From an uncultured Candidatus Saccharibacteria bacterium (lineage in GTDB: Bacteria; Patescibacteriota; Minisyncoccia; Phycocordibacterales; DSPV01), in contig CAYGFK010000004.1 of NCBI GenBank assembly GCA_964349135.1, positions 728 through 64,727 of the forward strand: DNA of 64,000 nucleotides. Direction: 5' to 3'. Positions 521-27,071 of this stretch are shown here, in pieces; the stretch's first letter is position 1; each line of letters starts with the position of its first letter. Below the pieces are notes generated by a model. It made no database searches, was not told the origin of the DNA, and was given only the letters and a program-made list of their open reading frames with translations. The translations under genes and the position numbers were made by a program.

Positions 521-1381
521 ATGAAAAAAGTAGCACTATTTCTCTCTTTTTCCGCACTAACGCTTGTTTTTCAGGCCCATGCCCATGATGGCGAAGTTCA
601 TGGTGTGGAACTCGCACAGACGTCGCTTCAGGTAGAGCCGATTAGAGCAGAGCTTCAGTTTGAGACGAAAATTGAAGATGATGGTTCGTCTAAGGGGAGC
701 GTTGAATACGAATGGAAAGTTGAAGAAGGTGAATCGGCAGCTGCGCCAGGTGTCGAGCCTGATGAAATAGATTTTATGAATACATCGGACGATTCAAGTG
801 TGGAGCGTGAGATGAAAGAGTCCGGTGAAAAAGGCGGTACGGAAGACATCAATATCGGGGTTGGAGAGTCTTCGCTTAAGGGAGGAATCAGTGTGGCGAC
901 AGGCGACGTCAACGGATTGACCGAAGAAGAGAAGCAGGAGTTTCTCTTGCGCGTGAAGGAGCACGTTGAAGTTCGTTCTGCGCAGGAGCTTGAGAATTTT
1001 GCGAAAGGGGTTCTTCTTGGAGATGAGAATATAGAGTCGGTGGAAATCGATGACGGGAAGATTGAGGTAAGGTACCGTATCTCCGCTAAGCTTTTTGGTT
1101 TCATCGAATCAGGTATTCCGGTTAGGGCAAGAGTCGAGAGCGATACGGAAAGTGAAGGGGCCGTCTCAGTTCGATTCCCATGGTATCGCTTCCTCTTTAG
1201 TATTCCCGATGAGGTTGGTAGAGATAATTTAGAGACGTCTCTTGGTACTGAGCTCTCCGGTATGGTATTTCTTGGCACTGAGAGCGGAGATACTCAGCGC
1301 GCACGAGTCCTTCAAACTATCAGTAACGTACTGAAGACGCGTCACGACACGGCCAAGAACTCAGTCAATAATATAAGATAA
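521..1381 (+). CDS. secreted acidic (Glu/Asp/Gly/Ser-rich) hypothetical protein with N-terminal signal peptide
   Basis: N-terminus MKKVALFLSFSALTLVFQAHA is a classic signal peptide, followed by a strongly acidic low-complexity region. A -10 TATAAT-like box lies upstream at about 493. Confidence 0.6.
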   Translation: MKKVALFLSFSALTLVFQAHAHDGEVHGVELAQTSLQVEPIRAELQFETKIEDDGSSKGSVEYEWKVEEGESAAAPGVEPDEIDFMNTSDDSSVEREMKESGEKGGTEDINIGVGESSLKGGISVATGDVNGLTEEEKQEFLLRVKEHVEVRSAQELENFAKGVLLGDENIESVEIDDGKIEVRYRISAKLFGFIESGIPVRARVESDTESEGAVSVRFPWYRFLFSIPDEVGRDNLETSLGTELSGMVFLGTESGDTQRARVLQTISNVLKTRHDTAKNSVNNIR

Positions 1382-1386
1382 CGATT

Positions 1387-1611
1387 ATGACGACAGCTCA
1401 CAAACGTCTCTATCGGAGTGAAACGAACAAGGTGTTCGCAGGTATCTGCGGAGGTCTAGGTGAATTTCTTGATGTCGACCCTGTTTTTATTCGGTTTCTT
1501 TGGGTATTACTCGTCGTATTTACAGGGTTTGTTCCCGGCATCATCGCATACGTAGTTGCGCTTTTTGTGATTCCTAAGGAAAAAGCTCGCATCATAGAGC
1601 ACAAAGCATAA
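1387..1611 (+). CDS. PspC-domain membrane protein
   Basis: RSxxNKVFAGICGGLGEFLDVDPVFIRFLWVLLV matches the PspC domain signature (G-x-C-x-G-L..DP..R), followed by a single TM helix. Confidence 0.8.
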   Translation: MTTAHKRLYRSETNKVFAGICGGLGEFLDVDPVFIRFLWVLLVVFTGFVPGIIAYVVALFVIPKEKARIIEHKA

Positions 1612-1613
1612 CT

Positions 1614-2795
1614 ATGAAGAAAATAATCACAATTGTTGTCAGTGTTATTGCCGTAGGATTTATTTGGTATGCGTTTCGAGGAGGTATGTTACAGCCCGAA
1701 CCGAAACAAGAGGTAGTTCTTGGGGGGGATAGTGCGAACGCAACCTATCGAATTGATGGTAAGGAGTACACATTAGAAAATGGGAGGGTTGAAGTGGAGG
1801 CCGTTTCCGGGTCAGCGTCTAAAACTACAGTCCAGCTATTTGGGAATGCGGTTTTGGGAGACTTAACTAATGACGGGTTAGATGACGAACTTGTTTTCTT
1901 AACGTCTGATGGCGGAGGTAGTGGCACCTTTTTCTATATGGTAGCAGCTATCAATACGGGTTCCGGTTATCAGGGGACAAATGCCGTATTGCTCGGTGAC
2001 CGTATCGCTCCACAAACGCTTGCCATAAAAAATGGTATTGCCATCGCAAATTTCGTTGACCGTGCATCTGACGAACCTATGGTTGTTGAGCCGACTATTG
2101 GCAAGTCGATTTATGCAACCGTATCCGGTACCGAACTCATTTCGGTAGGTGATTTCGCTTCCGGTGAACAAGTGATGCAGGGTTATCTTGTGTGGGGCGG
2201 TGAAACACGGTCGTTTCGTCCGTGTGGAGAGGCACAGCCTGAATACTGGCTTCATGGCACTTCACCAGCGCTCGGCGACATTCGTACTACCTATCAGACC
2301 CTTGTCACAGACGTAGAGCCGTCGGCCTATGCTCCGCTTTTTGCTACGGTCGTAGGTACTATCGTCGATGCCCCGGAGGATGGATTTGGTGCTGATTACG
2401 ACTATGCATTGAACGTTCGTTCCCTCGTGTCCTCATCGAGGATGGGGAACTGCAAGAGTGACCTCATCGTGCTTGACGAACCACTCGCCGGCGGAAGTGT
2501 CACCTCACCACTGGTTATATCAGGACGCGCAAGAGGGTCGTGGTTTTTTGAGGCGAGTTTCCCCATTTCGATTGTTGATTGGGATGGCAGGATTATCGCA
2601 GAGCACTATGCGACCGCAGAAGGAGAGTGGATGACGACTGATTTCGTGCCGTTTACAGCGACCATTGAGTTTGAATCTCCCGCAGGTACCGAATCATTTA
2701 TGAATCGTGGCTCGCTTATCCTCAAAAAAGATAATCCGTCCGGGCTTCCTGAGCATGACGATGCTCTTGAGATACCCATATACTTTGCTCAATAG
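1614..2795 (+). CDS. membrane-anchored protein with C-terminal Gmad2-type Ig-like domain
   Basis: N-terminal TM anchor. C-terminal ...ISGRARGSWFFEASFPISIVDWDGRIIAEHYATAEGEWMTTDFVPF matches the characteristic ARG-WFFE-SFP pattern of Gmad2 domains. Confidence 0.6.
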   Translation: MKKIITIVVSVIAVGFIWYAFRGGMLQPEPKQEVVLGGDSANATYRIDGKEYTLENGRVEVEAVSGSASKTTVQLFGNAVLGDLTNDGLDDELVFLTSDGGGSGTFFYMVAAINTGSGYQGTNAVLLGDRIAPQTLAIKNGIAIANFVDRASDEPMVVEPTIGKSIYATVSGTELISVGDFASGEQVMQGYLVWGGETRSFRPCGEAQPEYWLHGTSPALGDIRTTYQTLVTDVEPSAYAPLFATVVGTIVDAPEDGFGADYDYALNVRSLVSSSRMGNCKSDLIVLDEPLAGGSVTSPLVISGRARGSWFFEASFPISIVDWDGRIIAEHYATAEGEWMTTDFVPFTATIEFESPAGTESFMNRGSLILKKDNPSGLPEHDDALEIPIYFAQ

Positions 2796-2802
2796 GTAAA
2801 AG

Positions 2803-2842
2803 AAAAGGCGTTCGCTTGCAGATGCAAGCGAACGCCTTTTGT
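2803..2842. terminator. bidirectional rho-independent terminator (ggcgttcgcttgc / gcaagcgaacgcc) flanked by A-run and T-run
   Basis: 13-bp perfect stem between convergent genes ending at 2795 (+) and 2853 (-). Confidence 0.8.
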
Positions 2843-2852
2843 GTTGGAAGTA

Positions 2853-3416
2853 CTATAAGTCCAACCTCAGCTGTCCGTCATCTCCGCCGAAGGGAGCACA
2901 GACAATGAAGTCGATAACATCTCCTCGTTGAGTGAATACGTGCGACGCACCGATGTGCGCGATTTCCGCCTCTTGCAAGACGACGACTGTCCGCTCTTCA
3001 ATTTTCGGAGAGATGCGTAGGAAGAGCACGTCGCTTGAGAAGTCAGGAGGATATCCGTCAGCTATCCGTCCAAGCGGTTGCACGAAGGGTCTTTCGTGGG
3101 GCTCTTGGATTAAGAATCCTCCATGGATTACCGTTTGATACGAGGTTGTCACCCGTATGAGTTCGTATTGAGGTATCTCGGCCCTCGGTATGGTTGGGTA
3201 ATCTGTGTCGTAGACAATGATGTGGTCCGGCGCGAAGCAATTTAATTCTACGACACACCTTTTCTTCCCGAATTCCACTAATTTCGGATGCCATAGCTCT
3301 AGAGGTTCTCTGATTGCACCCTTACCGGTCATTTTTGCACGAAAGACTCCGTAGGGCGTGATGGTAGCTATGTTATTTCTGGCAGTTTTCCTGAGACTTG
3401 TTCGCAATGCTATCAT
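2853..3416 (-). CDS. hypothetical protein (187 aa from Met15 of the track ORF)
   Basis: An AAGGAG Shine-Dalgarno lies 7 nt upstream of the ATG encoding MIALRTSL. The long ORF is protein-like in composition. No family recognised. Confidence 0.55.
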   Translation of the reverse strand: MIALRTSLRKTARNNIATITPYGVFRAKMTGKGAIREPLELWHPKLVEFGKKRCVVELNCFAPDHIIVYDTDYPTIPRAEIPQYELIRVTTSYQTVIHGGFLIQEPHERPFVQPLGRIADGYPPDFSSDVLFLRISPKIEERTVVVLQEAEIAHIGASHVFTQRGDVIDFIVCAPFGGDDGQLRLDL

Positions 3417-3502
3417 GGTGCGCTCCTTTCGGTTGTTCTCATATGATATTTCCATCATTATTCTTTGTTGTCAATAGTTTCGATTTTGTTATTATATAAG
3501 AT

Positions 3503-3829
3503 ATGAAAATTGTTGTGGTTATTGTCGTTGCGGGAGGTATTATGTGGTACTTCGGATTTCACGGTCCGAATCCTATCTTTACCGACTACTCCGGTCAGGG
3601 CGGTTCCTTTATGGGGCGCCAAATTTGTACCAATCTTGTCCCTCAAAATCCGTACAATCCTCGTCTTGCACAATACAATGGATTTGAATGGGCAAGCCAA
3701 AACAAAAATAGTCGATGCCCGAGTGAGTCATCGTTCATCAAACAAGGGTGTGAAGAATACCATCGACAAGAAGCTATCTATGCAGAATGCACGAAAGACG
3801 ACCCGTATAAAGGTCTTAAGGGTCAGTAA
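3503..3829 (+). CDS. small membrane-anchored Cys-containing hypothetical protein
   Basis: N-terminal TM (KIVVVIVVAGGIMWYFGF), 4 Cys in the exported part, -10-like TATTATATAAG just upstream. Divergent from the 2853..3416 gene. Confidence 0.5.
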   Translation: MKIVVVIVVAGGIMWYFGFHGPNPIFTDYSGQGGSFMGRQICTNLVPQNPYNPRLAQYNGFEWASQNKNSRCPSESSFIKQGCEEYHRQEAIYAECTKDDPYKGLKGQ

Positions 3830-3831
3830 GA

Positions 3832-4509
3832 CTACTCTTTGAAATTCTCTTCTTCGACAACTCCTTTCGAGAGCTTGAGTGTTCGATGTGTCAGTGCGGC
3901 GTACTCCGGTTCGTGGGTGACCATGACAATAGTTTGACCGTCTTTGTTCAGCGAGAGAAAAGTATCAAGAACCGTTTGAGCGGTGGCACTGTCGAGGTTC
4001 GCGGTTGGCTCGTCGGCAAAAATAATCTTAGGGTCGTGGCCAATAGCGCGAGCGATGGAGACACGTTGCTGTTCTCCTCCTGATAACTGGCTCGGGAGAT
4101 TGTTGAATTTGTCGGCAAGTCCTATTCTCTCGAGCGCTTTTTTCGCTTTTTGTGTCGCCTCTTTCTTTTCAAGACCCAGCATGAGGAGAGGAATAATCAC
4201 GTTTTCGCCGGCGGTGAGTTCGGGGACAAGCGCATAATCTTGGAAGATGTAGCCGAGTTCGTTGAGTCGGAATGCGGTGCGCTCGGAAGGGTTTAATTTT
4301 GCAACGTCGACATTGTCGATGACAATTTCTCCACTGTCAGGGACGTCAAGCAGGCCGAGTTGGTAGAGGAGCGTACTTTTTCCTGAACCGGAACGTCCGG
4401 TGATGGAAAGAAACTCTCCTTTTTTCACCTCCATATCTAAGTCTTTTAGGACGACAAGCATTTCGTCTCCGGTTTTAAATGATTTTACGAGATTTCGTAC
4501 GTGTATCAT
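3832..4509 (-). CDS. ABC transporter ATP-binding protein (MacB/LolD-like)
   Basis: Walker [13 protein letters not shown] signature [14 protein letters not shown], Walker B IIFADEPT. Confidence 0.92.
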
Positions 4510-4510
4510 G

Positions 4511-5863
4511 TTATCGTCCGAGAATAGCGTCTAAGGTGTTTTGTTTTGTCACGATGCGGGCGGGGATGTATCCTGCGGCGATGGTTGCAACCACGAGTAT
4601 AGCGACTCGGATGAGCGCACCTTCAACACTGACTGCAAGGATGCCGTCAGAGAACGGGAAGTTAATGGGGTGAGCAAGGAAATATGGTTCAAGCACGCCG
4701 AATACAATCAGCAGGCCAATTCCTGAGCCCGCAATCGCGTAGAGTAGCGATTGAATAATGTAGGCGACTTCGATTGAGGTGGAGCTAATCCCAATACCTT
4801 TAAGAATGCCGATGAATTTTCTCCGGGTGATGGCATTGATGAAGATGACAATGAATATGGTGATTGAGGCAACCACGACACCAATTGAACTGATAATGTT
4901 GCCGAGTGTCGCGAATGTCTTTTTCATATCTTTGATGAATTTAGGTTCGGCGTCGTCTCTTGTCTGGACGCGGGCGTAACGGTCTGCACCTGATGCAATG
5001 AGAGCATTCTTGATGGCAATAGGGTCAACACCTTTTTCAAGTACCACCATAATTTCATTCGCGTTGTAGTCGTAACGATTGATGAGGGAGCGGAACTGCG
5101 TATCGGTGAAGAAAACGCGGCGGTCGAGTTCGTCGACCTTACTTCGCACGATACCTTTGATACGTACGTCTCTTGTGCTCCCGCCAACTGAGATGCGCAC
5201 CTTGTCTCCAACTTGCACATCTTCAAGTGTTAGAAAGATGGGAGATTCGAAATCAAGAAATTCTTTAAGCAAGAGCGCGCCGATAAGAACTTGGTCGTAG
5301 TCATCCGGCTCAAGATATTCTCCTCGAATAAGGAGACTGGAAAGGCCGCTTGCGAGGTCCTCTTTAATAGGATTGATGCCGACAAATGATGTGCCGACAG
5401 CGCGTGACAGTTCTCCCGGTTTTCGTATTTCCTGGTAGTTTTCCTCGATGGTTCCTGATTCAAGGTAGCGGGGGTTCACGTATTTCACTCCCGGTAAGTT
5501 TTGTGCGGTACTTATGATGGTGGAGGTTTTTTCGATATACGGTCTCCCTTGTTTGGCGGAAATGAAGATATCACCGAGGTATCGAGTACCAACAGCCTGC
5601 ACGGCTCCCTCAAGTAGCCCGACAAGGACTCCGGAGACGACCACCATGTTGAGGAAGGTCAGGGTCATGATAAAGACAATGAGAAAGTTGGTCCAGATAT
5701 TGCTTCGTTTAACCTGCCGATAGGCAAGGAAAAAACCGACCGACAATGCGGTCGAGAGAGTCTGCTTTTTGGTGTAATCCTTTACGCGTTCAGGATTCAT
5801 GTATAGGCAATTGTATCGGTTTGTTCGAGAACTATCAATTATACGATATTTACCTTGTGTCAA
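4511..5863 (-). CDS. ABC transporter permease, FtsX/MacB-like (real start probably the ATG at 5800; the track start codon is TTG)
   Basis: N-terminal TM, large periplasmic domain and 3 C-terminal TM helices typical of FtsX-like permeases. Start overlaps the ATPase gene stop by 2 nt, consistent with an operon. Confidence 0.85.
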   Translation of the reverse strand: MTQGKYRIIDSSRTNRYNCLYMNPERVKDYTKKQTLSTALSVGFFLAYRQVKRSNIWTNFLIVFIMTLTFLNMVVVSGVLVGLLEGAVQAVGTRYLGDIFISAKQGRPYIEKTSTIISTAQNLPGVKYVNPRYLESGTIEENYQEIRKPGELSRAVGTSFVGINPIKEDLASGLSSLLIRGEYLEPDDYDQVLIGALLLKEFLDFESPIFLTLEDVQVGDKVRISVGGSTRDVRIKGIVRSKVDELDRRVFFTDTQFRSLINRYDYNANEIMVVLEKGVDPIAIKNALIASGADRYARVQTRDDAEPKFIKDMKKTFATLGNIISSIGVVVASITIFIVIFINAITRRKFIGILKGIGISSTSIEVAYIIQSLLYAIAGSGIGLLIVFGVLEPYFLAHPINFPFSDGILAVSVEGALIRVAILVVATIAAGYIPARIVTKQNTLDAILGR

Positions 5864-5953
5864 GGTAATGGAGCACGTACGCTAGCGTCTTCTCTAAGAG
5901 GCAGGTGCGATGTTGCACCTGCACTATAAGTAATCACCTATAATCAAGCTCAC

Positions 5954-6952
5954 ATGAAGAAGATAACGCTATTTATTATTATTGCTATGTTAGGACTTTC
6001 GTTGGCACCGGCGTTCAGTAGTGCATCCGGAAAATCCGAGAATAAGAAGTCGGGTGTCACGCAAGGTAAATCAGAAGAATATAAACAGAAAAGTAGGCAG
6101 GACAAAGAAGACCGCACTGAATCTGAGAAAAAATCAGGCAAGTATTCTGATGACGACCATGAGGGGGATGATGACGACGATGATGATGAGAACGAGCGTC
6201 ATCGCTTTTTCAAGAATCTCGTCGAGTGGGGAGGTTCAAAAGTCACTATCTGCCATAAGGGCAAGGTAACTATCTCTATCTCCGAGCGAGCTCTCAGGGC
6301 ACACCGTGCTCATGGTGATACCGATGGGCGTTGCACTGGGGGCGATAACGCGACCACAACTCCTCCGACCGTAGATGTAATTCCTCCAGTGATTACATCA
6401 GTGGCGGGTACCGTAGCCGTCAATGGTGCCGTGGTTTCCTGGACAACAAATGAACTCTCGACGTCGCGCGTATGGTATGCGACTTCATCGAATGTTGCGA
6501 CAGCAACTCCGCGCTTCGATGTGTCGAATAATGGCTTGGTCACGAGTCATACGCTAACGCTCGAAGGTCTCACGGCAAGCACCACGTACTTCTTTACCGT
6601 TTCTTCGGTGGATGCAAGCGGTAACAGCGCGACAAGTTCAACCTATTTCTTTAAGACGAATCCGTTGATTATATCTGGATTAAGTGCGACATCGAGCGCA
6701 AGCACAACGGCTTCAATCTCTTGGAATACAAACGATGAGACAAATGGAACGCTCTGGTACGCGACGTCCTCCCCGGTCATTAGTGCATTCACACCAGTGA
6801 TGATGAGTACCACGACGCTCTCAACATCACATACGTTTGCCCTTGAAAACCTTATTGCAAGTACCTCGTATTATTACTTCGTTATGTCTGCTGACCTCTT
6901 CGGGAATACGGCAACAAGTTCTGATGGAGTATTTGTAACGGGAACTGAATAG
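5954..6952 (+). CDS. secreted protein with poly-Asp tract and two fibronectin type III-like repeats
   Basis: Signal peptide MKKITLFIIIAMLGLSLAPAFSSA. Poly-Asp/Glu tract HEGDDDDDDDENERH. Two homologous about 90-aa repeats (SWTTNELSTSRVWYATSS...TTYFFTVSSVDASGN and SWNTNDETNGTLWYATSS...TSYYYFVMSADLFGN). Confidence 0.7.
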   Translation: MKKITLFIIIAMLGLSLAPAFSSASGKSENKKSGVTQGKSEEYKQKSRQDKEDRTESEKKSGKYSDDDHEGDDDDDDDENERHRFFKNLVEWGGSKVTICHKGKVTISISERALRAHRAHGDTDGRCTGGDNATTTPPTVDVIPPVITSVAGTVAVNGAVVSWTTNELSTSRVWYATSSNVATATPRFDVSNNGLVTSHTLTLEGLTASTTYFFTVSSVDASGNSATSSTYFFKTNPLIISGLSATSSASTTASISWNTNDETNGTLWYATSSPVISAFTPVMMSTTTLSTSHTFALENLIASTSYYYFVMSADLFGNTATSSDGVFVTGTE

Positions 6953-6963
6953 ACACGCTTACC

Positions 6964-6997
6964 AAAACGCTCTCCCTTACGGGGGAGCGTTTTTGCT
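6964..6997 (+). terminator. rho-independent terminator
   Basis: aaacgctctccc-ttac-gggggagcgttttt immediately after the stop at 6952. Confidence 0.75.
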
Positions 6998-7008
6998 ATA
7001 CTTACCAT

Positions 7009-7533
7009 ATGGCAACGACTGAGGTATCAAAGAGGAGATTGTTCGCACCCTATATCCGGAACTTTATCTTCGGCGTTGAAGATAGTCTTGTTTCGACGGT
7101 AGGGCTTTTATCTGGAGTCGCTATCGCTGGGGTACCTCGTAGCACCATTTTTCTTACAGGCGTTGTACTTATTTTTGTTGAAGCGTTTTCGATGGGGGCG
7201 GGGAGTTTTTTGTCAGAATCTTCAGCTGATGAATATATGAGCGGTAGGACGCAGGATGGGCGTTCATTCAAGCTCGGCACCCTCATGTTCGTGTCCTATT
7301 TTATAGCCGGATTTATTCCGCTTTTTCCTTATGTTTTGTTTGAAACTGCCGAAGCGTTTAGTATCTCAATCGTGTGTTCACTTGTCGCACTCTTTGTGCT
7401 CGGTCTTATCGGTGGGAGGGTAACTGGGCGTCATGTGGTGAAGCATGGAATACGAATGCTTGTTGTCGGAGGACTAGCCATTGGAGTCGGTATTCTTGCG
7501 GGCCAGATTGTTGGAGTCGTTACGTCTCTTTAA
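7009..7533 (+). CDS. VIT1/CCC1-family (DUF125) membrane transporter-like protein
   Basis: NFIFGVEDSLVSTVGLLSGVAIAG matches the VIT-family N-terminal motif. Multiple TM helices. Confidence 0.7.
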   Translation: MATTEVSKRRLFAPYIRNFIFGVEDSLVSTVGLLSGVAIAGVPRSTIFLTGVVLIFVEAFSMGAGSFLSESSADEYMSGRTQDGRSFKLGTLMFVSYFIAGFIPLFPYVLFETAEAFSISIVCSLVALFVLGLIGGRVTGRHVVKHGIRMLVVGGLAIGVGILAGQIVGVVTSL

Positions 7534-7551
7534 GTAGGGTGTGTCGCTAAC

Positions 7552-8076
7552 ATGATACGTAGGACCGAAAAAGGATTCAGTATTATTGAACTTCTCGTGG
7601 TCATTGCAATTATTGGTATTCTTTCCAGTATGACGCTCGCCACTTTTCAAAAAGCTAAAGGTAAGGCGTATTTTGGTCGGGCACAGGGGGAGTTTATGTC
7701 GATGGCTGATGCGCTTGAGTTATATAGAAACGAGAACGAAGGAACGTATCCGCCCGATGCGAACCGGCAAATCCCCCCAGGTCTCGAAGCGTATCTTGCG
7801 ACTGCCGACCAGTGGCCTAATGCGCCTTGGCCAGGAAGCGTGTATGACTGGGATAATTGGGTTGATTCGGACACGGAAGAAAGTATTTATCAAATCAGTA
7901 TTAGATTCTGTCCCGTGGGTGGACCCCTCTCGGCATGTAGTTTCCCCGATGAAGATTGGGCAGTTGGGTTCGGTGTGAACAGTGCGGTGTATTACTGCAT
8001 TGAGGGAGCATGTCGTGCACATATAAACGAATCAGTTGATTATCCGGGATATTGTGTGAATTGTGCAAACCAATAG
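7552..8076 (+). CDS. type IV pilin-like / pseudopilin (prepilin-type N-terminal cleavage/methylation domain)
   Basis: GFSIIELLVVIAIIGILSS is the canonical prepilin leader (G|F, Glu5) plus hydrophobic helix. C-terminal domain has several Cys. Confidence 0.85.
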   Translation: MIRRTEKGFSIIELLVVIAIIGILSSMTLATFQKAKGKAYFGRAQGEFMSMADALELYRNENEGTYPPDANRQIPPGLEAYLATADQWPNAPWPGSVYDWDNWVDSDTEESIYQISIRFCPVGGPLSACSFPDEDWAVGFGVNSAVYYCIEGACRAHINESVDYPGYCVNCANQ

Positions 8077-8136
8077 TGGCTACATGTGCTATGGTAAGTG
8101 TATCTTATAGGCCTAAGTTATATATTAATATCTACT

Positions 8137-8721
8137 ATGAACAACGATAAGGCATTGGTATGGGTAATAGTCGTCATTCTTTTTATTGGAGGCATTGTTT
8201 ATTTTTCAACGTCGAGTCCTTCGGGTGAAGAAGGGGTCTCCCAAGAAGTGTCGGATGAGGCAGTGACGCAAGAAAAGGTGTCCTCAAAAACTCCTTCTAC
8301 ACCGAAGACATCCGTGTCTTCGACGGGGGCTCAGAGCGGTTCTGCAACACTCGGAAATCTTCTTGCGCAGGGAGGGAATCGTGTGTGTACGTATTCTGAG
8401 ACGACACAGGTCGGACGGACTGACGCCAATGTCTATGTGTCCGGCGTACGAATGCATGCCGTGTATACGACGCATTTTAATGCTGGCGAGAAGGTAGAAA
8501 GCCACGTGCTCTATCTTGCGGGTATGGTGTATGGTTGGACATCTACCTCGGCACAAGGATATAAATCGCCTACGACGGCGTTAGAAGTTGGTTCGACACT
8601 TGGGTTTGCGGGTTCTGCGGGTTATGACTACAGTAGGGCTCTTCCGTACAACTGTCAGGGGTGGGGTGGTGACGCAACACTCTTCTCTATGCCAGCAGGC
8701 GTTGTCTTTACGAACATATAA
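8137..8721 (+). CDS. membrane-anchored hypothetical protein
   Basis: Signal-anchor MNNDKALVWVIVVILFIGGIVYF. Ser/Thr-rich linker. Terminator downstream. The track ORF extends to 8098. Confidence 0.5.
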   Translation: MNNDKALVWVIVVILFIGGIVYFSTSSPSGEEGVSQEVSDEAVTQEKVSSKTPSTPKTSVSSTGAQSGSATLGNLLAQGGNRVCTYSETTQVGRTDANVYVSGVRMHAVYTTHFNAGEKVESHVLYLAGMVYGWTSTSAQGYKSPTTALEVGSTLGFAGSAGYDYSRALPYNCQGWGGDATLFSMPAGVVFTNI

Positions 8722-8723
8722 TT

Positions 8724-8758
8724 AAAAAGCCGACGAGGTAACTCCTCGTCGGCTTTTT
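8724..8758 (+). terminator. rho-independent terminator
   Basis: aaaaagccgacgagg-taact-cctcgtcggcttttt. Confidence 0.8.
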
Positions 8759-8871
8759 GTATTGTGAATGTATAATTCAACGTCGTTGTAACATTTTAGA
8801 CGTACGTACGTGTTATACTATTTAAGTGGGAATAAGGTCGTTTTTTTATTTACCTTAACCTCTTACGCATT

Positions 8872-9003
8872 ATGGAAGAGAATCAGACCCCACAGAATAC
8901 CACCTGCTCAATGTGCGACCATCAGCACAAAGAAGACGGGACTTGTGATTGTGGTTGTAACGGCGCTCAAGAATCTACTTCGGAAGAAGGAGCTCAGGCA
9001 TAA
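8872..9003 (+). CDS. small Cys-rich peptide (43 aa: MEENQTPQNTTCSMCDHQHKEDGTCDCGCNGAQESTSEEGAQA), putative metal-binding
   Basis: Not in the ORF track, which has a 83-aa ORF in another frame instead. -10 boxes TGTATAAT and TGTTATACT lie upstream, and a strong hairpin with T-run (9016..9046) follows the stop. 5 Cys in a C-x2-C...C-x-C-x-C arrangement. Confidence 0.4.
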   Translation: MEENQTPQNTTCSMCDHQHKEDGTCDCGCNGAQESTSEEGAQA

Positions 9004-9015
9004 CGTATGGCACCA

Positions 9016-9046
9016 CAAAAAACCGCTCGTTTTCGAGCGGTTTTTT
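9016..9046. terminator. bidirectional rho-independent terminator
   Basis: aaaaaaccgctcg-tttt-cgagcggtttttt between the small ORF (+) and the convergent gene ending at 9048 (-). Confidence 0.8.
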
Positions 9047-9047
9047 G

Positions 9048-10274
9048 TTACCCGAAGGTGAAGGTAAATGCTTCGAATTCAGGGGACTCAATGATAAGTT
9101 CTAGTGTGTGTTCTCCCCATGACATTCCTTCCACAATTCGATACAGACGGTCTTCTTGGATGGTAAGATAGCCATCGCTACCAACATCAGCTCCGCGCAT
9201 TGATGAGGGTATAACGGTCCCATCGATGAGTACGCGAGCCCGGACCGGAGTGTTTGCTCGGGCAACCATAAAGACCTTCTGTGCTTGGTATTTGAGCAAC
9301 ACGCGAGCCGGTGTATTTGCTGGGGTTGCGTATTCGGTTTGGATATTCCAGGAACCACCGAGGTAGAGTATCGAGGAGTCGAACTCGGAGGGGAGTGTGA
9401 GCGTTTGTGTTCCGTTGATATATCTCGCACCGTTTCCAAGTAGCGAATTCCTAAATGACCCGAAATAAATTTCAGGAGTTCGCGGTTTTGACGGGTCCAC
9501 CGTCTCAGCCTCTACCTTTGTTGAAGAAACGGGCGTCATTGTTTCCCCTAAACGTTCATTTCTCTCTTTGAGGAGGTTTTGAATAAGAGATTCGGTTTCG
9601 GCGTACGCACCTTCTCCTATGTGGTCGTAGACGATAAATCCATCTATGTCTATAAGATATTTCCTCGGCCAATATGAATTTTTATAGGCGCGCCACGTAG
9701 AAAAGTCGTTATCTTGTATGATAGGATATTCAACGCCGAATCGTTGTGCGGCCATGATGACATTTGTTCGGTCTTTCTCGAATTCGAATTCAGGGGTATG
9801 GATAGAAATGATTTCAAGTCCGCTATCCCGATATTTCGTATACCAATCTGTCAGGTAGGGAAGGGTGCGCTGGCAGTTGATGCATGAATAGGTCCAAAAA
9901 TCGACGAGGACAACTTTTTTGCCAATGAGCGATGAGATGGTTACCGGCACTTCTCCTGTATTAATAAATCCTGAGGGATTTACTATCTCAACAAAGCGTT
10001 CATACCGTGTTGCTTTTGCTTTGTAGGCAGAAGTTTCTGAGTTTGATGGTACATCTGTTATTTTTGTATCAGTGCCTGTCGATAGTACCGTTTCTGGAAT
10101 TGAAGAGGAGGTGGTTGTGCAACTTCCGTCCGGTCCAGGATTTTGACACTGCACGATTTCTTGTAATGAAGCCGAGACGCTCGGGCGTGATTTTTGCGAC
10201 TCGAGATAGGTAATAGAGCCGATAATGACGATGACGACAGCTATCAGCGTTAGGTTGCGTGCGTTTAAGGTCAT
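9048..10274 (-). CDS. membrane-anchored thioredoxin-fold protein with C-terminal beta-sandwich domain (DipZ C-terminal-like thiol:disulfide oxidoreductase)
   Basis: TM anchor. TlpA/ResA-like motif VVLVDFWTYSCINCQRTLP (CxxC). About 150-aa C-terminal extra domain. Start overlaps the ccdA stop. Confidence 0.8.
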   Translation of the reverse strand: MTLNARNLTLIAVVIVIIGSITYLESQKSRPSVSASLQEIVQCQNPGPDGSCTTTSSSIPETVLSTGTDTKITDVPSNSETSAYKAKATRYERFVEIVNPSGFINTGEVPVTISSLIGKKVVLVDFWTYSCINCQRTLPYLTDWYTKYRDSGLEIISIHTPEFEFEKDRTNVIMAAQRFGVEYPIIQDNDFSTWRAYKNSYWPRKYLIDIDGFIVYDHIGEGAYAETESLIQNLLKERNERLGETMTPVSSTKVEAETVDPSKPRTPEIYFGSFRNSLLGNGARYINGTQTLTLPSEFDSSILYLGGSWNIQTEYATPANTPARVLLKYQAQKVFMVARANTPVRARVLIDGTVIPSSMRGADVGSDGYLTIQEDRLYRIVEGMSWGEHTLELIIESPEFEAFTFTFG

Positions 10275-10981
10275 GAGCGTAGGAGGAATGCGTTAAGAAG
10301 TTCAAAGTTGGCGATGCGGGCAAGGTTGTTTGTGAATATAAGGATGCCGATTACGATGAGGAGGACGCCAAATACAATATTGATGTATTTCACGACATGA
10401 ACGAATCGGTTAAGAAATTTCGAACTCTCGGCGGCGAACAGCCCAACGATGAGGAAGGGAATACCAAGGCCAAGTGCATACGAGAGGAGGAGGATAAAGG
10501 CGCTTCCCGGAGCGCTAGCCGCAAGGCCGAGTATCGCGCCGAGTGCGGCACCAACGCAGGGTGTCCATCCAGCCGCAAAGGCGAGTCCGAAGACAAATGA
10601 AGTGAGGTAGCGAGAAGAGAATTTCTTCGTAACACGGAGTTTGTGTTCGCGCTCGAGGAATCCAATATGCACAAGGCCTGTCACGTAGAGCCCGAAGAAG
10701 ATAATAATGGCTCCACCGATGCGAGAGAGCCATATCTGTGCATCGTACGCAAAGGATTCTAGCACGGTGTTGAGGAGGACACCGAGGAGGGCGAAGATGA
10801 ATGAGAAGCCGAGAACGAAGAAAAGCGCGTTAAGAAATGTTTCGCGGCGATTCACCTCTCCTTCTTTGAGCGATGAACCCGCAAGGTACGCGAGAAATCC
10901 AGGAATAATCGGGAGGACGCAAGGGGCGATGAATGATATGAGTCCTGCCGTAAAGGCGACGATGATATTGAGGTCTGCCAT
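10271..10981 (-). CDS. ccdA: cytochrome c-type biogenesis protein CcdA (DsbD-like membrane thiol-disulfide electron transporter)
   Basis: ISFIAPCVLPIIPGFLAYLAG plus a second conserved Cys (AAGWTPCVGAALG). 6 TM helices. Confidence 0.9.
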   Translation of the reverse strand: MADLNIIVAFTAGLISFIAPCVLPIIPGFLAYLAGSSLKEGEVNRRETFLNALFFVLGFSFIFALLGVLLNTVLESFAYDAQIWLSRIGGAIIIFFGLYVTGLVHIGFLEREHKLRVTKKFSSRYLTSFVFGLAFAAGWTPCVGAALGAILGLAASAPGSAFILLLSYALGLGIPFLIVGLFAAESSKFLNRFVHVVKYINIVFGVLLIVIGILIFTNNLARIANFELLNAFLLRS

Positions 10982-10982
10982 G

Positions 10983-11636
10983 TTACCGGTGCGATGCTAT
11001 CTCTGATAGATAACGCGATGCATCCCATGATTCCGGAGATTTGAGGACGCGCGTATTATTTTTGATGAATACTTTTGTATGTTGATAGGCAACACCGAAC
11101 TGTTGGGCCAGAACTTTTTCATTTTGGTCGGTTTCGGTGTCATTGAAGTTGACTCGAAATGCAACCACGTCATTTCCTTCAAGTTCGTTGAAGGCACTCT
11201 GCATCTTTGGGAATTCCGTTTTGCAGACGGGGCACCAATTTGCGTAGAAGTAGAGCACCACAAGCTTATCGGTCGCGATGGCCGTGTCGTAATCGGATTT
11301 CGTGAACTCAAGTAGCGGGGAGGTATCCAGCGAGCCGGCAAGGAGGGTTCCGGAGTAGCTCTCTTTCTGCATCATGGATTCATCATTGGTCAGCGTGTCG
11401 TCGGATTCCATCATAACGTCGTTCGTTGGCTCAGTAGGACAGGGAGCAAATTCACATTTTGGTCCGATACGGCCAACGGCACTTCCATCAGGACAGATTT
11501 TTGCGTCTGCTGTACACGCGACAGGACCCGTGTCGATATCCGAAGAATCTCTTGTTGCGTAATAGATTCCTCCGCTTGCGATGAGGAGTATGACGATGAC
11601 GCTTGTAAGTGCGACGGATGATATACCTTTTTGCAT
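10983..11636 (-). CDS. membrane-anchored thioredoxin-like protein (TlpA-family)
   Basis: LVVLYFYANWCPVCKTEFP CxxC motif. N-terminal TM and Cys-rich linker. Confidence 0.8.
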   Translation of the reverse strand: MQKGISSVALTSVIVILLIASGGIYYATRDSSDIDTGPVACTADAKICPDGSAVGRIGPKCEFAPCPTEPTNDVMMESDDTLTNDESMMQKESYSGTLLAGSLDTSPLLEFTKSDYDTAIATDKLVVLYFYANWCPVCKTEFPKMQSAFNELEGNDVVAFRVNFNDTETDQNEKVLAQQFGVAYQHTKVFIKNNTRVLKSPESWDASRYLSEIASHR

Positions 11637-11652
11637 AAACTTTTTTTAATTA

Positions 11653-12015
11653 CTAATTGTTCTTTTTATTCCAGAAGGATGCCACGGCTTTTGTGAGGAC
11701 GCTTACCGCGAAAGCAATAACAAGCCACGGGTCGACGTTGTGGGAAAAGCTTTGAATGCCGATTGCCAATACAAGAACACCCGAAACGGCCAGATACGCG
11801 TTATGACCGGCGCGCATTCGGTGTAGTTCGTCACGTTCATCGAGTGCTCTTTCGCGCCAGACGAAGAAAGCGAATACGGCAAAACATATAAAGAATAGTG
11901 CGATGATAGTCATGGTTATAGCGTCCGGCATTAAGATTTTCATCGGATTAAGGAGTACGCATGCAAGCATAAGGGTGGCTAATGAGACGATGAGTTCCGA
12001 CATAAATGAGCGCAT
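11653..12015 (-). CDS. small multi-TM membrane protein (DUF2975-like partner of the XRE regulator)
   Basis: 3-4 TM helices. Start is 4 nt downstream of the XRE gene stop. This arrangement is typical of YozG-type regulator/membrane protein pairs. Confidence 0.55.
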   Translation of the reverse strand: MRSFMSELIVSLATLMLACVLLNPMKILMPDAITMTIIALFFICFAVFAFFVWRERALDERDELHRMRAGHNAYLAVSGVLVLAIGIQSFSHNVDPWLVIAFAVSVLTKAVASFWNKKNN

Positions 12016-12019
12016 GTGA

Positions 12020-12223
12020 TTATTTTACTGAAAATAATTTCTCTACCGAGACGTTAAAATATCTCGCGATTTTAAGTGCGAGCGCGACCGAGGGTGTGTA
12101 GTTTCCACGCTCCAGAGCGATGACTGTCTGACGTGTGACACCTGTGGCGTGAGCAAGCTCTTCCTGCGTCACCTCTTTTTTCACGCGATAGTCACTGACC
12201 ATGTTTGAGACCATGTCTCTCAT
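12020..12223 (-). CDS. XRE-family helix-turn-helix transcriptional regulator (YozG-like)
   Basis: [39 protein letters not shown] is a canonical Cro/C1 HTH. Confidence 0.88.
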
Positions 12224-12252
12224 GCCTGAAGTATAGCAAGCTAATTTTTGTA

Positions 12253-12270
12253 TGTAAAGTACGCTTTACA
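12253..12270. promoter_or_regulatory. 7-4-7 inverted repeat TGTAAAG-TACG-CTTTACA, candidate XRE operator between divergent XRE gene and msrA
   Basis: Perfect 7-bp arms. Located in the 78-bp divergent intergenic region, next to the TGTTATACT -10-like box of msrA. Confidence 0.5.
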
Positions 12271-12301
12271 TCGGACGTAACCATTTGTTATACTTTATCC
12301 T

Positions 12302-12832
12302 ATGAAAGAAATAGCGGTATTCGGGGGAGGGTGTTTTTGGTGTACTGAAGCGGTGTTCGAGCGTCTCAAGGGCGTGCTCTCGGTTATGCCTGGTTATGCC
12401 GGGGGATTAAAAGACAGCCCGTCGTATGAAGAGGTAAGTCGAGGAAGTACCGGTCATGCCGAAGTTATAAAAATCGAGTATGACCCGAGCGTTATCTCGT
12501 TTGGCGACTTACTTTCGGTTTTCTTCAACACCCATGACCCGACACAGCTCAATCAGCAGGGGAATGATGTGGGGGAGCAGTATCGTTCGGCTATTTTCTA
12601 TACGACTGACACACAGAAGCAGGAAGCAGAATTCCTTATCAAAGAGTTTGGCGAGAAAAAAGCGTACGACAAACCGGTTGTAACGAAGGTGGAACCTCTT
12701 GGAAAATTCTACCCTGCAGAGAACTATCATCGTGAGTATTATAATCGCAATTCAGATGCGCCGTACTGTGAGCTTGTTATCGCGCCGAAACTCGACAAAT
12801 TACAAAGGAAATTCAAACAATTGCTTTCATGA
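12302..12832 (+). CDS. msrA: peptide-methionine (S)-S-oxide reductase MsrA
   Basis: FGGGCFWCTEAVF catalytic motif, GYAGG, full-length MsrA fold. Confidence 0.95.
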   Translation: MKEIAVFGGGCFWCTEAVFERLKGVLSVMPGYAGGLKDSPSYEEVSRGSTGHAEVIKIEYDPSVISFGDLLSVFFNTHDPTQLNQQGNDVGEQYRSAIFYTTDTQKQEAEFLIKEFGEKKAYDKPVVTKVEPLGKFYPAENYHREYYNRNSDAPYCELVIAPKLDKLQRKFKQLLS

Positions 12833-13152
12833 GTAATTTGGTCAATAAGAAATGTGTTCCTTGCGAAGGAGATACCTTACCAGTTTCGGAGAAGTATGCT
12901 CGTGAAAAGCTCACAGAAATTGGAGGTCCATGGACACTTGTCGGCGCGCAACTGATAGCCGCATATTCCTTTAAAGATTTCAAAGAGGCGTTTGCGTTTG
13001 TGAGCAAGGTTGCGGACATCGCAGAGCAGGAAGGGCATCACCCCGATATCAGTGTTTCCTATAACCGTGTCGAGCTCATCCTTACCACGCACGCCATTGG
13101 CGGTCTTTCCGAGAATGATTTCATTATGGCCGCGAAGATAAATACACTTTAG
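12829..13152 (+). CDS. pterin-4a-carbinolamine dehydratase (PCD/DCoH family)
   Basis: EGHHPDISVSYNRVELILTTHAIGGLS matches the PCD signature ([EDKH]x3HHPx5-6[YW]...HxxxGL[ST]). Overlaps the msrA stop by 4 nt. Confidence 0.85.
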   Translation: MSNLVNKKCVPCEGDTLPVSEKYAREKLTEIGGPWTLVGAQLIAAYSFKDFKEAFAFVSKVADIAEQEGHHPDISVSYNRVELILTTHAIGGLSENDFIMAAKINTL

Positions 13153-13167
13153 CGTTACGGACCAGAG

Positions 13168-13197
13168 CGTAAAAAGAAAGCCGCCTTATGGGGCGGC
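13168..13197 (-). terminator. rho-independent terminator for the atp-operon tail (hairpin gccgcc/ggcggc overlapping the stop, T-run on minus strand)
   Basis: Hairpin plus TTTCTTTTTAC on the minus strand immediately after the CDS ending at 13186. Confidence 0.55.
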
Positions 13198-13443
13198 ATG
13201 TTCTTGGTGTACTGGTTTTGGTGTCGTGACCGAGCGAAAGAACGCGGCATCATAGGTATATTTCACCTTTCCCTCAAATTTGAGCAGAAAGGTCTCGCGC
13301 GATTGAATCCATATTTTGACGATGGTCAGCTCGTCTTGGGTCTCAATTAATCCTTTCGTGTTGTCCACTCGCTTGCAAAAGTTCGGGTCTATGGGGACGA
13401 ATTTAGGCACCACCTTATCTCCTACCTTAAACGGTGTGGTCAT
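13186..13443 (-). CDS. hypothetical 85-aa protein at the distal end of the atp operon
   Basis: Strong Shine-Dalgarno AAAGGAGA 7 nt upstream of the ATG, and a terminator at its 3' end. No family recognised. Confidence 0.6.
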   Translation of the reverse strand: MTTPFKVGDKVVPKFVPIDPNFCKRVDNTKGLIETQDELTIVKIWIQSRETFLLKFEGKVKYTYDAAFFRSVTTPKPVHQEHAAP

Positions 13444-13498
13444 ACGTAAGTCTCCTTTCTCTCCTGAATCCTACCCCAATATGGAAAAGCGTCAATAC

Positions 13499-13732
13499 TT
13501 AGTCGGCAAGTACGATAAGCTTCTTCCCGTTCGTATAGGCGCTACCGCCTTCTGTAGAAAAAGATTTTTCCTCATGTTTTTCTCGGCATATGACCGTGCC
13601 TTTTTTGAGAATGGTGAGCAGTGGCGCGTGGTGGTCGAGCACACTAACTTCTCCGTCGACACCTGGCAGGGTGACTGAGTGAGCCTCACCTTCATACAAG
13701 GTTTTTTGTAAGTTGTAGATGTGGACTTTCAT
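13499..13732 (-). CDS. atpC: F0F1 ATP synthase epsilon subunit (short, N-terminal beta-sandwich only)
   Basis: MKVHIYNLQKTLYEGEAHSVTLPGVDGEVSVLDHHAPLLT matches the epsilon N-terminal domain. At 77 aa it lacks the C-terminal helical hairpin. Confidence 0.85.
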   Translation of the reverse strand: MKVHIYNLQKTLYEGEAHSVTLPGVDGEVSVLDHHAPLLTILKKGTVICREKHEEKSFSTEGGSAYTNGKKLIVLAD

Positions 13733-13750
13733 AGGTACGTATCAGCAGAT

Positions 13751-15130
<1,380 letters not shown>

Positions 15131-15148
15131 TTAGCCGAAGCTTGTAAG

Positions 15149-16078
15149 TTAGTTTGATAAGGCCTCTTTACCGGCGGTAATCTCGGTCAATTCCTTGGTA
15201 ATGGCTGCCTGGCGAGTTTTGTTATATTGAATATTGAGTTTCTCGACGAGTTCTCCGGCGCTGTCCGACGCATTTTTCATTGCAAACATTCTCGACGAAT
15301 GCTCGGAAGCATTTCCTTCAAGAATTGCGTGGAAGACTTGGACGGCGAGCAGTTGAGGTAGGATTACGGAAAGTGCTTGGGTAGGTGACGGCTCGAATAT
15401 AAGTTCTTCCGCCGACGTATCAGCTGTTTCGAATGAAGCGGGGATATTAGCGTATTTACCACGCAGGGGTTCGATGCCGGCGAGGATTTCGTTCAAGGTA
15501 TGTTCGGTGAAAGGGAGAAGCGTGCGAACAACCACTTCTTGTTTGAGAGCTGAGAGAAAATTAGTGTAAACGATAACCACCTCGTCGCACTCTCTGCTCA
15601 TAAAGTAATGAATGATAGCATCTGAAATGAGGCGAGTCTCATCTAGTGCCCCATAGTCTCCTGCACCAAGGAATTCTTGTGTAATCGACGCATGACGACG
15701 TCTGAAATAGTCGCGCCCCTTCTTTCCGACCGTAATGAGCAATGTCTTTTTATCTGATTTTGCAATGACTTGCTCGGCGCGTTTGATGACATTTTGATTG
15801 AATGAACCGGCAAGTCCTTTATCGGAAGTAATCACCACAAGTCCTCGAACATTGATTTCACGTTGCTCCATGAGGGGCGACACCTCGCCTGTTTCTAAGG
15901 CACTTTTCTGTATCGAGCGTAGCAGTGAGAGGGCCGAGAGGGCGTACGGTCGCGCGTTTAGGGCAAGCATTTGGCTACGGCGCATCTTTACGGCAGAGAC
16001 AGCTTCCATCGCTTTCGTCATCTGACGGATGTTTTTGGTAGAGCGTATGCGGTTTCGTAATGCTCGTGAGCCGGCCAT
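15149..16078 (-). CDS. atpG: F0F1 ATP synthase gamma subunit
   Basis: N-terminal MAGSRALRNRIRSTKNIRQMTKAMEAVSAVKMRR and C-terminal ITKELTEI helix are typical of gamma. Confidence 0.93.
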   Translation of the reverse strand: MAGSRALRNRIRSTKNIRQMTKAMEAVSAVKMRRSQMLALNARPYALSALSLLRSIQKSALETGEVSPLMEQREINVRGLVVITSDKGLAGSFNQNVIKRAEQVIAKSDKKTLLITVGKKGRDYFRRRHASITQEFLGAGDYGALDETRLISDAIIHYFMSRECDEVVIVYTNFLSALKQEVVVRTLLPFTEHTLNEILAGIEPLRGKYANIPASFETADTSAEELIFEPSPTQALSVILPQLLAVQVFHAILEGNASEHSSRMFAMKNASDSAGELVEKLNIQYNKTRQAAITKELTEITAGKEALSN

Positions 16079-26879: not shown

Positions 26880-27071
26880 ATGACGCATTACGTATGCCCC
26901 GGTGATTGCGGAGGCGAATCTGGGAAAGTCGGTCTTTGCGAAAGCGAAGGTTGTACTCGCGAAGGAGATGCACTTATCGAATGCGATTGTGATGACGGGC
27001 TACATAAAGGAGTTCTCGATGACTCTCAGGAGCCTGATGTCGAAAGCATGGATGACGAAGATGATTTCTAA
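26880..27071 (+). CDS. small acidic Cys-rich peptide (63 aa: MTHYVCPGDCGG...CESEGC...IECDCDDGLH...acidic tail)
   Basis: TATATAAT -10 box upstream. Strong terminator 15 nt after the stop. 6 Cys including a C-x-C pair. Overlapping track ORFs in other frames look spurious. Confidence 0.45.
   Translation: MTHYVCPGDCGGESGKVGLCESEGCTREGDALIECDCDDGLHKGVLDDSQEPDVESMDDEDDF

Follow-up and report, generated by a model that had tools for sequence, protein, structure and literature searches.

Introduction

Bacterial metallothioneins of the SmtA/BmtA type are proteins of about 55 residues, with 9 Cys and 2 His, which carry the signature C-x-C-x2-C-x-C and hold a Zn4Cys9His2 cluster; the SmtA sequence contains motifs of the C-x-H ... 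C-x-C type and ends with ...CGHTGCNCHG. The MymT sequence also has Cys/His motifs, C-x-H-x2-C-x-C among them. SmtA (Zn, with the ArsR-type repressor SmtB, whose gene adjoins smtA) and MymT (Cu, with a role in copper detoxification) are known bacterial metallothioneins, and were the sole ones with a studied function at the time they were surveyed (PMC7387436). A Pseudomonas metallothionein that is rich in His and whose tail is disordered is described by Habjanic et al. 2018, as cited in PMC7387436.

Here we describe a gene at 8872..9003 (+) of a 64,000-nucleotide stretch of DNA (hereafter the window), which encodes a 43-residue protein with a single Cys5His2 module and belongs to a wider family of such mini-proteins. 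Like BmtA/SmtA, the window protein is small, apparently cytoplasmic and free of aromatic residues, with conserved Cys and His in short C-x-H ... C-x-C motifs, and an ArsR/SmtB-family gene lies near family members in 10 loci, as smtB does near smtA. In contrast to BmtA/SmtA (PF02069), to which there is no profile match, the Cys spacing is different, the Cys5His2 unit is modular and can be repeated in tandem, at 18 residues, 5 of them Cys and 2 His, it is far shorter, and its genes are linked mainly to thiol-redox genes. MymT of Mycobacterium tuberculosis is likewise small, lineage-restricted, easily overlooked and endowed with Cys/His motifs, and the conserved Met in the C-x-M-C of the Cys5His2 family would suit Cu(I); however, homology to MymT is undetectable, and MymT appeared in no search output. 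The His-rich Pseudomonas metallothioneins, as far as they are presented in PMC7387436, share with the window protein a compact Cys/His core and a low-complexity disordered tail (predicted in our case), but they are BmtA-type proteins of another family with another motif.

Two further kinds of protein invite comparison. Rubredoxins and zinc ribbons have knuckles similar to the N-terminal C-x2-C-G-H one (best PDB profile E=0.06-0.35), yet the second half of the Cys5His2 module is C-x-C-x-C rather than C-P-x-C-G, and nothing significant was found by sequence or by Foldseek. The precursors of SCIFF/ranthipeptides are similar in length (about 45 residues) and in having several Cys, but they differ in their Cys pattern, in the conserved His of our family, and in the adjacent radical-SAM maturase, which was not found among the scanned neighbours of the Cys5His2 genes.

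Results

A 43-codon gene between two terminators

The features of the transcription unit are as follows (+ or -, strand).

8724..8758, unstranded: terminator hairpin of the upstream gene (terminator scan; 15-pair stem with 8 GC pairs; the 207-aa gene itself stops at 8721)
8769..8776, +: distal extended -10-like box TGTATAAT, read in the sequence, 96 nt before the ATG
8800..8811, unstranded: (ACGT)x3, a perfect 12-nt palindrome, read in the sequence, which overlaps or abuts the proximal -10 box
8811..8819, +: proximal extended -10 box TGTTATACT, read in the sequence, 53 nt before the ATG
8834..8840, +: AAGGTCG, the leader motif RRGGTCGAR as found in the window, with T instead of A after GGTCG; it lies 36 nt before the ATG
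8872..9003, +: CDS of the 43-aa Cys5His2 protein (ORF, alignment, HMM, AlphaFold)
8905..8958, +: conserved module C-S-M-C-D-H-Q-H-K-E-D-G-T-C-D-C-G-C, residues 12-29 (invariant columns, HMM alignment, AlphaFold pLDDT)
9015..9048, unstranded: bidirectional intrinsic terminator, common to the convergent 408-aa redoxin gene, which ends at 9048 (fold)

From the sequence and the ORF list, it is clear that 8872..9003 (+) runs without interruption from ATG to TAA and translates into MEENQTPQNTTCSMCDHQHKEDGTCDCGCNGAQESTSEEGAQA (43 aa), exactly as in the original prediction. The competing 83-aa ORF that it mentioned in another frame is also present, as a GTG ORF at 8810..9061 that crosses the 3′ terminator. 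Two -10 boxes do lie upstream, but their spacing from the ATG is 53 and 96 nt, and not the 40-90 nt that had been claimed. The strong bidirectional terminator was found as described, with the hairpin beginning 12 nt past the stop codon (13 in the prediction).

This hairpin (9015-9048) has a dG of -26.6 kcal/mol and a z of -5.3, with 0 of 200 shuffled sequences being equally stable, and consists of a GC core (9023-9029/9034-9040) with an A-run on its 5′ side and a T-run on its 3′ side. A simple terminator scan missed it because the stem extension took in the T-run. Since terminators at 8724-8758 and 9015-9048 flank the ORF on both sides, it forms a self-contained transcription unit. Transcription from the TGTTATACT promoter is predicted to start near 8826 and to give a leader of about 45 nt; the same 9-mer recurs unchanged just before the msrA start at 12302. 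The distal box TGTATAAT is absent from the sigma-70 scan list because it has no matching -35. The palindrome at 8800..8811 is a possible operator, although by itself it is not significant, with about 16 perfect 12-nt palindromes estimated to occur by chance in 64 kb.

An exact look-up returned no recorded gene for the product of 8872..9003. At this place nothing is called in the contig as deposited at ENA, so that the gene is unannotated there. The boxes, the flanking terminators, the ENA copy and the family profile described below all support the earlier proposal of a genuine, unannotated small gene with its own promoter and terminator, and 8872..9003 is a real monocistronic gene.

The protein contains no F, W or Y, and is strongly acidic without basic surface residues. 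Cys makes up 5 of its 43 residues (11.6%), compared to 10/58 (17%) in two-module relatives. In the AlphaFold2 model, made with the module alignment, residues 11-30 have pLDDT values of 81-86, with 56-62 at the ends (56-58 for residues 31-43); the C-terminal tail, residues 31-43, is an acidic, low-confidence segment that is predicted to be disordered.

A conserved family of Cys5His2 mini-proteins

A word-indexed protein search with the 43-aa peptide gave zero matches. An exhaustive phmmer search of 1.84 billion representative proteins, in contrast, gave 13 matches at E ≤0.001, 12 of which are proteins of 41-72 aa (E 9e-8 (8.6e-8) to 6e-4) that contain one or two copies of the motif C-x-M-C-x-H-x-H-K-x(1-2)-D-G-[TS]-C-[DE]-C-G-C. 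The remaining match is P0136, a protein of 871 aa in which DGxCDCGCG is repeated twelve times, and was dropped as a spurious low-complexity repeat match. In an alignment of 20 modules, C12, C15, H17, H19, C25, C27 and C29 are invariant and G23 and G28 nearly so; the window protein also has the family-conserved M14, K20, D22, G23, T24 and G28.

A degenerate DNA pattern for the module, which sets no requirement for a start or stop codon, retrieved 47 stretches (loci) from JGI metagenome contigs. All 47 matches nevertheless sit in complete ORFs of 19-74 codons, save that in L118, where the ORF has 171 codons and an internal ATG yields 67 aa; family ORFs have their ATG shortly before the first module and their stop usually 0-3 codons past the last. 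When an HMM built from 55 modules of the other loci, with the window excluded, was run against the window's 2274 six-frame segments, the ORF scored 39.9 bits (E=3.6e-11) and the runner-up had E=1.5; the module motif occurs a single time within the window. The window protein has every family trait, namely C-x2-C-x-H-x-H-x5-6-C-x-C-x-C with the conserved M, K, D-G and G, in an ORF of about 20-75 codons.

Pairwise dN/dS values are 0.09-0.17 for whole genes and 0.08-0.23 over the N-terminal halves, which lie outside the constraint of the search pattern. The family is under purifying selection. As to the conservation and Ka/Ks check suggested in the original prediction, the frame is conserved family-wide by phmmer, DNA pattern and HMM, with dN/dS at 0.08-0.23. 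At the orthologous position, as retrieved through the convergent redoxin gene, the module was found in 0 of 85 other loci, including the closest ones (L082-L086, 55-59% identity). The small gene is therefore dispensable and patchy, and its conservation is shown family-wide, not by synteny.

Architectures, database matches and hosts

Four types of members can be told apart. Type A has two modules in tandem; type B has an N-terminal C-M-A-C-S-C-P-C-E-M-H-K-E-H-N-H module and type C an N-terminal (F/Y)VCKSCGSESSGTPGTCCG module, each followed by the Cys5His2 module; type D, including the window protein, L087, L113 and L126, has one module, bare or with a low-complexity tail. Fusions were seen to CMACSCPCEMHKEHNH or VCKSCGSESSGTPGTCCG modules. 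Long His/Glu-rich extensions occur in L132 247..471 (for example, HRHEHEAHPETTEEHTHDEEHEHEEEEHAH) and in L102, L118 and L093; such extensions give weak, composition-driven matches to the His-rich loops of ZIP, CDF and ZnuA. Two adjacent paralogues were found in L106 2789..3159 (-) and L136 1177..1527 (-), the second copy being more divergent (for example, C-A-V-C-E-H-K-H ... C-D-C-E-C).

Pfam and NCBIfam searches with the window peptide and six relatives gave no family match; PF02069 (Metallothio_Pro) was not matched by any of these seven at E up to 10, and Zn_Ribbon_1 was matched only at E=0.086, far below the cut-off. A PDB profile search returned nothing significant (best E=0.06-0.35), and Foldseek against PDB gave 0 matches. 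Searches of the literature on the motif, on Patescibacteria/Parcubacteria metallothioneins and on CPR Cys-rich small proteins found nothing relevant. To judge from these searches, the Cys5His2 family is previously uncatalogued. Since it has no profile match to the BmtA/SmtA, zinc-finger, rubredoxin or RiPP families, it is filed as a new sequence family, and probably one of a known functional kind, the small bacterial metallothionein.

The best relatives of the neighbouring redoxin all come from Patescibacteria/Parcubacteria MAGs (41-60% identity), for example Candidatus Taylorbacteria, and the best redoxin match in GTDB genomes has 49-53% identity. In L110, the genes beside the family member encode proteins that NCBI lists under a 'Patescibacteria group bacterium', with a cluster member from Candidatus Yanofskybacteria. 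The host range, as given by the window genome and L110 (the sole family locus with named neighbours), is Patescibacteria. In L110, four ORFs lie between DUF3179 and CcdA (DoxX, the small gene, the redoxin and a 162-aa ORF), compared to three intervening accessions between MEK7193475.1 and MEK7193479.1; one of these ORFs, possibly the small gene, may be unannotated in the NCBI MAG too.

Genomic neighbourhood

The genes around the small gene in the window are listed below.

7009-7533: VIT1 (Pfam)
7552-8076: pilin-like gene
8098-8721: 207-aa gene, function unassigned
9048-10274, -: convergent gene of 408 aa, Redoxin and Thioredoxin_10 (Pfam)
10271-10981, -: CcdA/DsbD_TM (Pfam)
10983-11636, -: thioredoxin (Pfam)
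11653..12015, -: 120-aa ORF with a weak Cation_efflux (CDF) match, 22.6 bits against a cut-off of 26.6
12302-12832: MsrA
12829-13152: pterin-4a dehydratase

The protein families of the convergent operon 9048..11636 (-) recur beside family members elsewhere, and the ORF at 11653..12015 may be a truncated or remnant metal efflux gene beside this Trx/CcdA operon. Neighbour clustering was carried out on 51 loci with up to three genes per side; since these loci are phylogenetically related, the locus counts overstate their independence. A membrane-anchored TlpA-like redoxin (WCPFC) lies within three genes in 21 of the 51 loci, and in 17 loci it is directly downstream on the same strand, typically after a gap of 10-16 nt. 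Other recurrent neighbours are DUF3179 (15/51), a TrxB-like flavoprotein (14/51), the ArsR family (10/51), a 121-aa membrane protein (10/51), DoxX (9/51), DsbA-like (7/51), MerT-like (6/51) and CcdA proteins (6/51), a Met-rich thioredoxin (5/51) and a DSP phosphatase (5/51). Near the window copy no ArsR gene was seen.

In L088 the gene order is FTR1, small gene, HTH, Trx, CcdA and Trx_10. Thioredoxin-like proteins in this locus (4022..4570) and in the window (10983..11636) have Met-rich low-complexity segments (MMKDEMQKEGEMMQDDSMKKDG...) after the membrane anchor, which are reminiscent of Cu(I)-binding Met motifs. A LOOT RNA (RF03000, 74.5 bits) was found at L099 4469..4601, about 2.7 kb downstream of the small gene.

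A leader motif before the start codon

In many family genes, RRGGTCGAR stands 23-44 nt ahead of the ATG, and what follows it is A/T-rich and contains no Shine-Dalgarno (SD) sequence. The motif is borne by loci L091, L093, L095, L096, L099, L107, L108, L110-L112, L114, L120, L121, L123, L125-L127, L133 and L135. GGTCG at positions -45..-21 was found in 19 of 44 unique family genes and in 7 of 184 neighbouring genes (Fisher p=1.6e-10, with lineages that are non-independent). It is independent of the identity of the upstream gene, and often comes immediately after that gene's stop codon. Three other genes in the same operons have RRGGTCGAR at a distance of 33-40 nt as well, namely DoxX in L112, the gene for a membrane protein of 120 aa in L109 and one for 113 aa in L115.

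Where a promoter could be recognised (window, L120, L126, L121 and L127), a -10 hexamer lies 2-16 nt before GGTCG, so that RRGGTCGAR would sit at the 5′ end of the RNA. An Rfam search of the leader and 20 loci gave no match to the leader, just terminator-like noise and tRNAs, and neither a conserved RNA structure nor a complementary partner for GGTCGA was found. Five or more loci have GGTCGA 52-74 nt upstream, where it codes for 'LVD' in the preceding DsbA-like gene, and these cases were excluded. AAGGTCG shows no enrichment in the window (14 occurrences compared to 8.9 expected), and the idea of a general promoter element was rejected for this reason.

Even when judged generously, SD sequences precede just 5 of 42 genes in this genome, and their near absence genome-wide means that the missing SD of the small gene is no evidence against its translation. 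Many window genes have a TATAAT/TATACT-type box 6-11 nt before the ATG (for example, those starting at 7009, 12302, 41493, 5954 and 26880), which suggests that leaderless mRNAs are widespread in the genome. Against such genes the predicted 45-nt leader of the small gene is unusual.

The second Cys-rich peptide of the window

The original prediction also pointed to a second gene of the same kind at 26880..27071. A real gene is indeed present there on the + strand, the called 63-aa gene P0001, which begins MTHYVCPGDCGG and has 9 homologues (the P0001-P0010 family, 57-71% identity). Its synteny is conserved, with Sua5/YciO upstream and a convergent MFS gene and RNase J downstream. Six Cys and His42 are conserved in the family, and its acidic C-terminal tail, D-x-ESMDDED (usually PDVESMDDED), is invariant and in sequence looks like a protein-docking motif. 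It is not of the same kind, however, since no homology was detectable: hhalign to the P0001-family profile gave a probability of 0.9% for the window 43-aa peptide and 0.5% for the fused type-C relatives, and homology of the two window peptides was rejected at a probability below 1%.

Discussion

On balance, we lean towards the small gene encoding a metallothionein-like metal-thiolate mini-protein that is expressed alongside thiol-redox stress genes. The invariant Cys and His of this conserved family fit a metal-binding micro-protein, a reading drawn from sequence and genomic context. Seven invariant Cys/His that share a stretch of 18 residues with a conserved Met, the lack of aromatic residues in the window peptide, and the free combination with other Cys/His modules and His-rich tracts all argue for a module that ligates soft metal ions, and at 43 aa (relatives 19-74 aa) the protein has the low molecular weight of a metallothionein. 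Several findings stand against this reading: for a metallothionein, the window protein is poor in Cys (11.6%), neither the bacterial metallothionein Pfam model nor any zinc-finger model is matched, the strongest linkage is to thiol-disulfide oxidoreductases, not to metal efflux or uptake genes, the small gene is patchy and dispensable, and no ArsR gene was seen beside the window copy.

In the scheme that we infer, including the promoter, the transcription start, the identity of the metal and the buffering role, the gene would be transcribed from the extended -10 promoter TGTTATACT into an mRNA with a leader of about 45 nt and no SD, ending at the bidirectional terminator. The product would be a cytoplasmic 43-residue protein, consisting of a single Cys5His2 module (C-x2-C-x-H-x-H-x5-C-x-C-x-C) and a disordered acidic tail, in which the seven invariant thiolate/imidazole ligands and the conserved Met could wrap one or two soft metal ions, most likely Zn(II) or Cu(I), with Cd, Hg and As possible. 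It would then buffer metal or act as a sink for it in the manner of a metallothionein, perhaps storing it in a redox-sensitive way, and would be co-expressed with the thiol-disulfide stress machinery (TlpA-like redoxin, CcdA, TrxB-like, DsbA-like and MsrA proteins), the small gene standing beside ArsR-type regulators in some lineages. That thiol-disulfide enzymes dominate the linkage suggests that the gene is expressed under thiol, oxidative or metal stress.

This same linkage keeps a role as redox switch or relay as the main rival, which we consider rather unlikely but worth keeping in mind. The protein would then be a thiol-redox component and not a metal store, its Cys cluster, possibly Zn-capped, passing between dithiol and disulfide as a cytoplasmic partner, sensor or electron shuttle for the TrxB-like/CcdA/TlpA-like redoxin pathway, with whose genes it shares operons. 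Such a role would agree with the redoxin gene that begins 10-16 nt after the small gene in 17 loci, with the recurrent TrxB-like, DUF3179, DoxX, DsbA-like, CcdA and MerT-like genes nearby (DUF3179 has selenocysteine UxxC forms, PMC9312934), and with the Trx/CcdA/Trx_10/MsrA island that the window copy adjoins. However, the protein has neither a thioredoxin fold nor a CxxC-in-helix context, and metal ligation is what its two invariant His, like the extensions rich in His, point to. The redoxin, moreover, probably faces the outside, given its N-terminal membrane anchor, whereas the small protein has no signal peptide, and the window copy is monocistronic on the strand opposite to the redox operon. 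Doubtful, too, is that the protein works by binding another macromolecule, as a zinc-knuckle mini-protein whose Zn is just structural; it could for instance be a regulator, resemble an anti-sigma factor, or be an adaptor on ribosomes or RNA. Its compact core (pLDDT 81-86), the weak, sub-threshold likeness to zinc ribbons, rubredoxin knuckles and C2H2 fingers, and the variable disordered tails that could serve as interaction arms would suit such a function. One structural Zn, however, needs four ligands, fewer than the seven that are invariant in each 18-residue module; modules that are duplicated in tandem and combined with other Cys/His modules or His-rich tracts are typical of metal sponges, not of specific binders; and the window protein is strongly acidic with no basic surface residues.

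The remaining two explanations appear far less probable. A RiPP-like precursor had been entertained in the original prediction for a small, Cys-rich peptide of this sort; its product might be SCIFF/ranthipeptide-like or thioamitide-like, and one relative does very weakly resemble a sactipeptide model (E=3.9). Yet no radical-SAM, YcaO or lanthipeptide enzyme turned up among the scanned neighbours, and no LanB/C/M or peptidase/exporter either, in the recurrent neighbour clusters of the 51 loci or in the 18 window ORFs at 521-16078; the conserved part is the Cys/His core, not a leader, which is the reverse of the leader/core layout, and many copies are directly followed by a redoxin gene. This very improbable alternative is largely refuted. 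Much the same holds for a chance ORF in a non-coding spacer between two terminators. The missing SD, the lack of a call by gene finders in public contig copies and the absence of the gene at the orthologous position in the nearest relatives could be taken in its favour, but the HMM match (E=3.6e-11, with all seven invariant residues plus M14, K20, D22, G23, T24 and G28), purifying selection across the family, the gene's own promoter, leader motif and terminator, and the rarity of SD throughout the genome all speak against it. For practical purposes it is refuted by the phmmer matches, the complete ORFs of the family and the HMM score.

A broader and more speculative possibility, to which we give little weight, is that the Cys5His2 mini-proteins are a dedicated part of an envelope thiol-reduction/metal-stress system of Patescibacteria, with the RRGGUCGAR leader marking their regulon; there they might act as a metal-loaded redox sensor or shuttle with TrxB-like, DUF3179, CcdA and TlpA-like proteins. 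If this is true, genomes in which leaderless, SD-less mRNAs otherwise prevail would have, in RRGGUCGAR, a new cis-regulatory signal.

Annotation overlooks small proteins systematically, and 8872..9003 is a case that was missed in public contig copies. The family hosts are ultra-small groundwater bacteria, the Patescibacteria, which have tiny genomes and many genes of unknown function; the literature that was searched yielded nothing on metal buffering in Patescibacteria. For these bacteria, a modular Cys/His family with ties to envelope thiol-redox operons would provide a candidate metal or redox buffer, and the conserved leader motif offers a separate handle on regulation in a phylum without a genetic system. 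Taken as metallothionein-like proteins, the family would enlarge the very small set of such proteins in bacteria by a new sequence class, and its compact 18-residue candidate metal-binding module is a subject for biochemistry.
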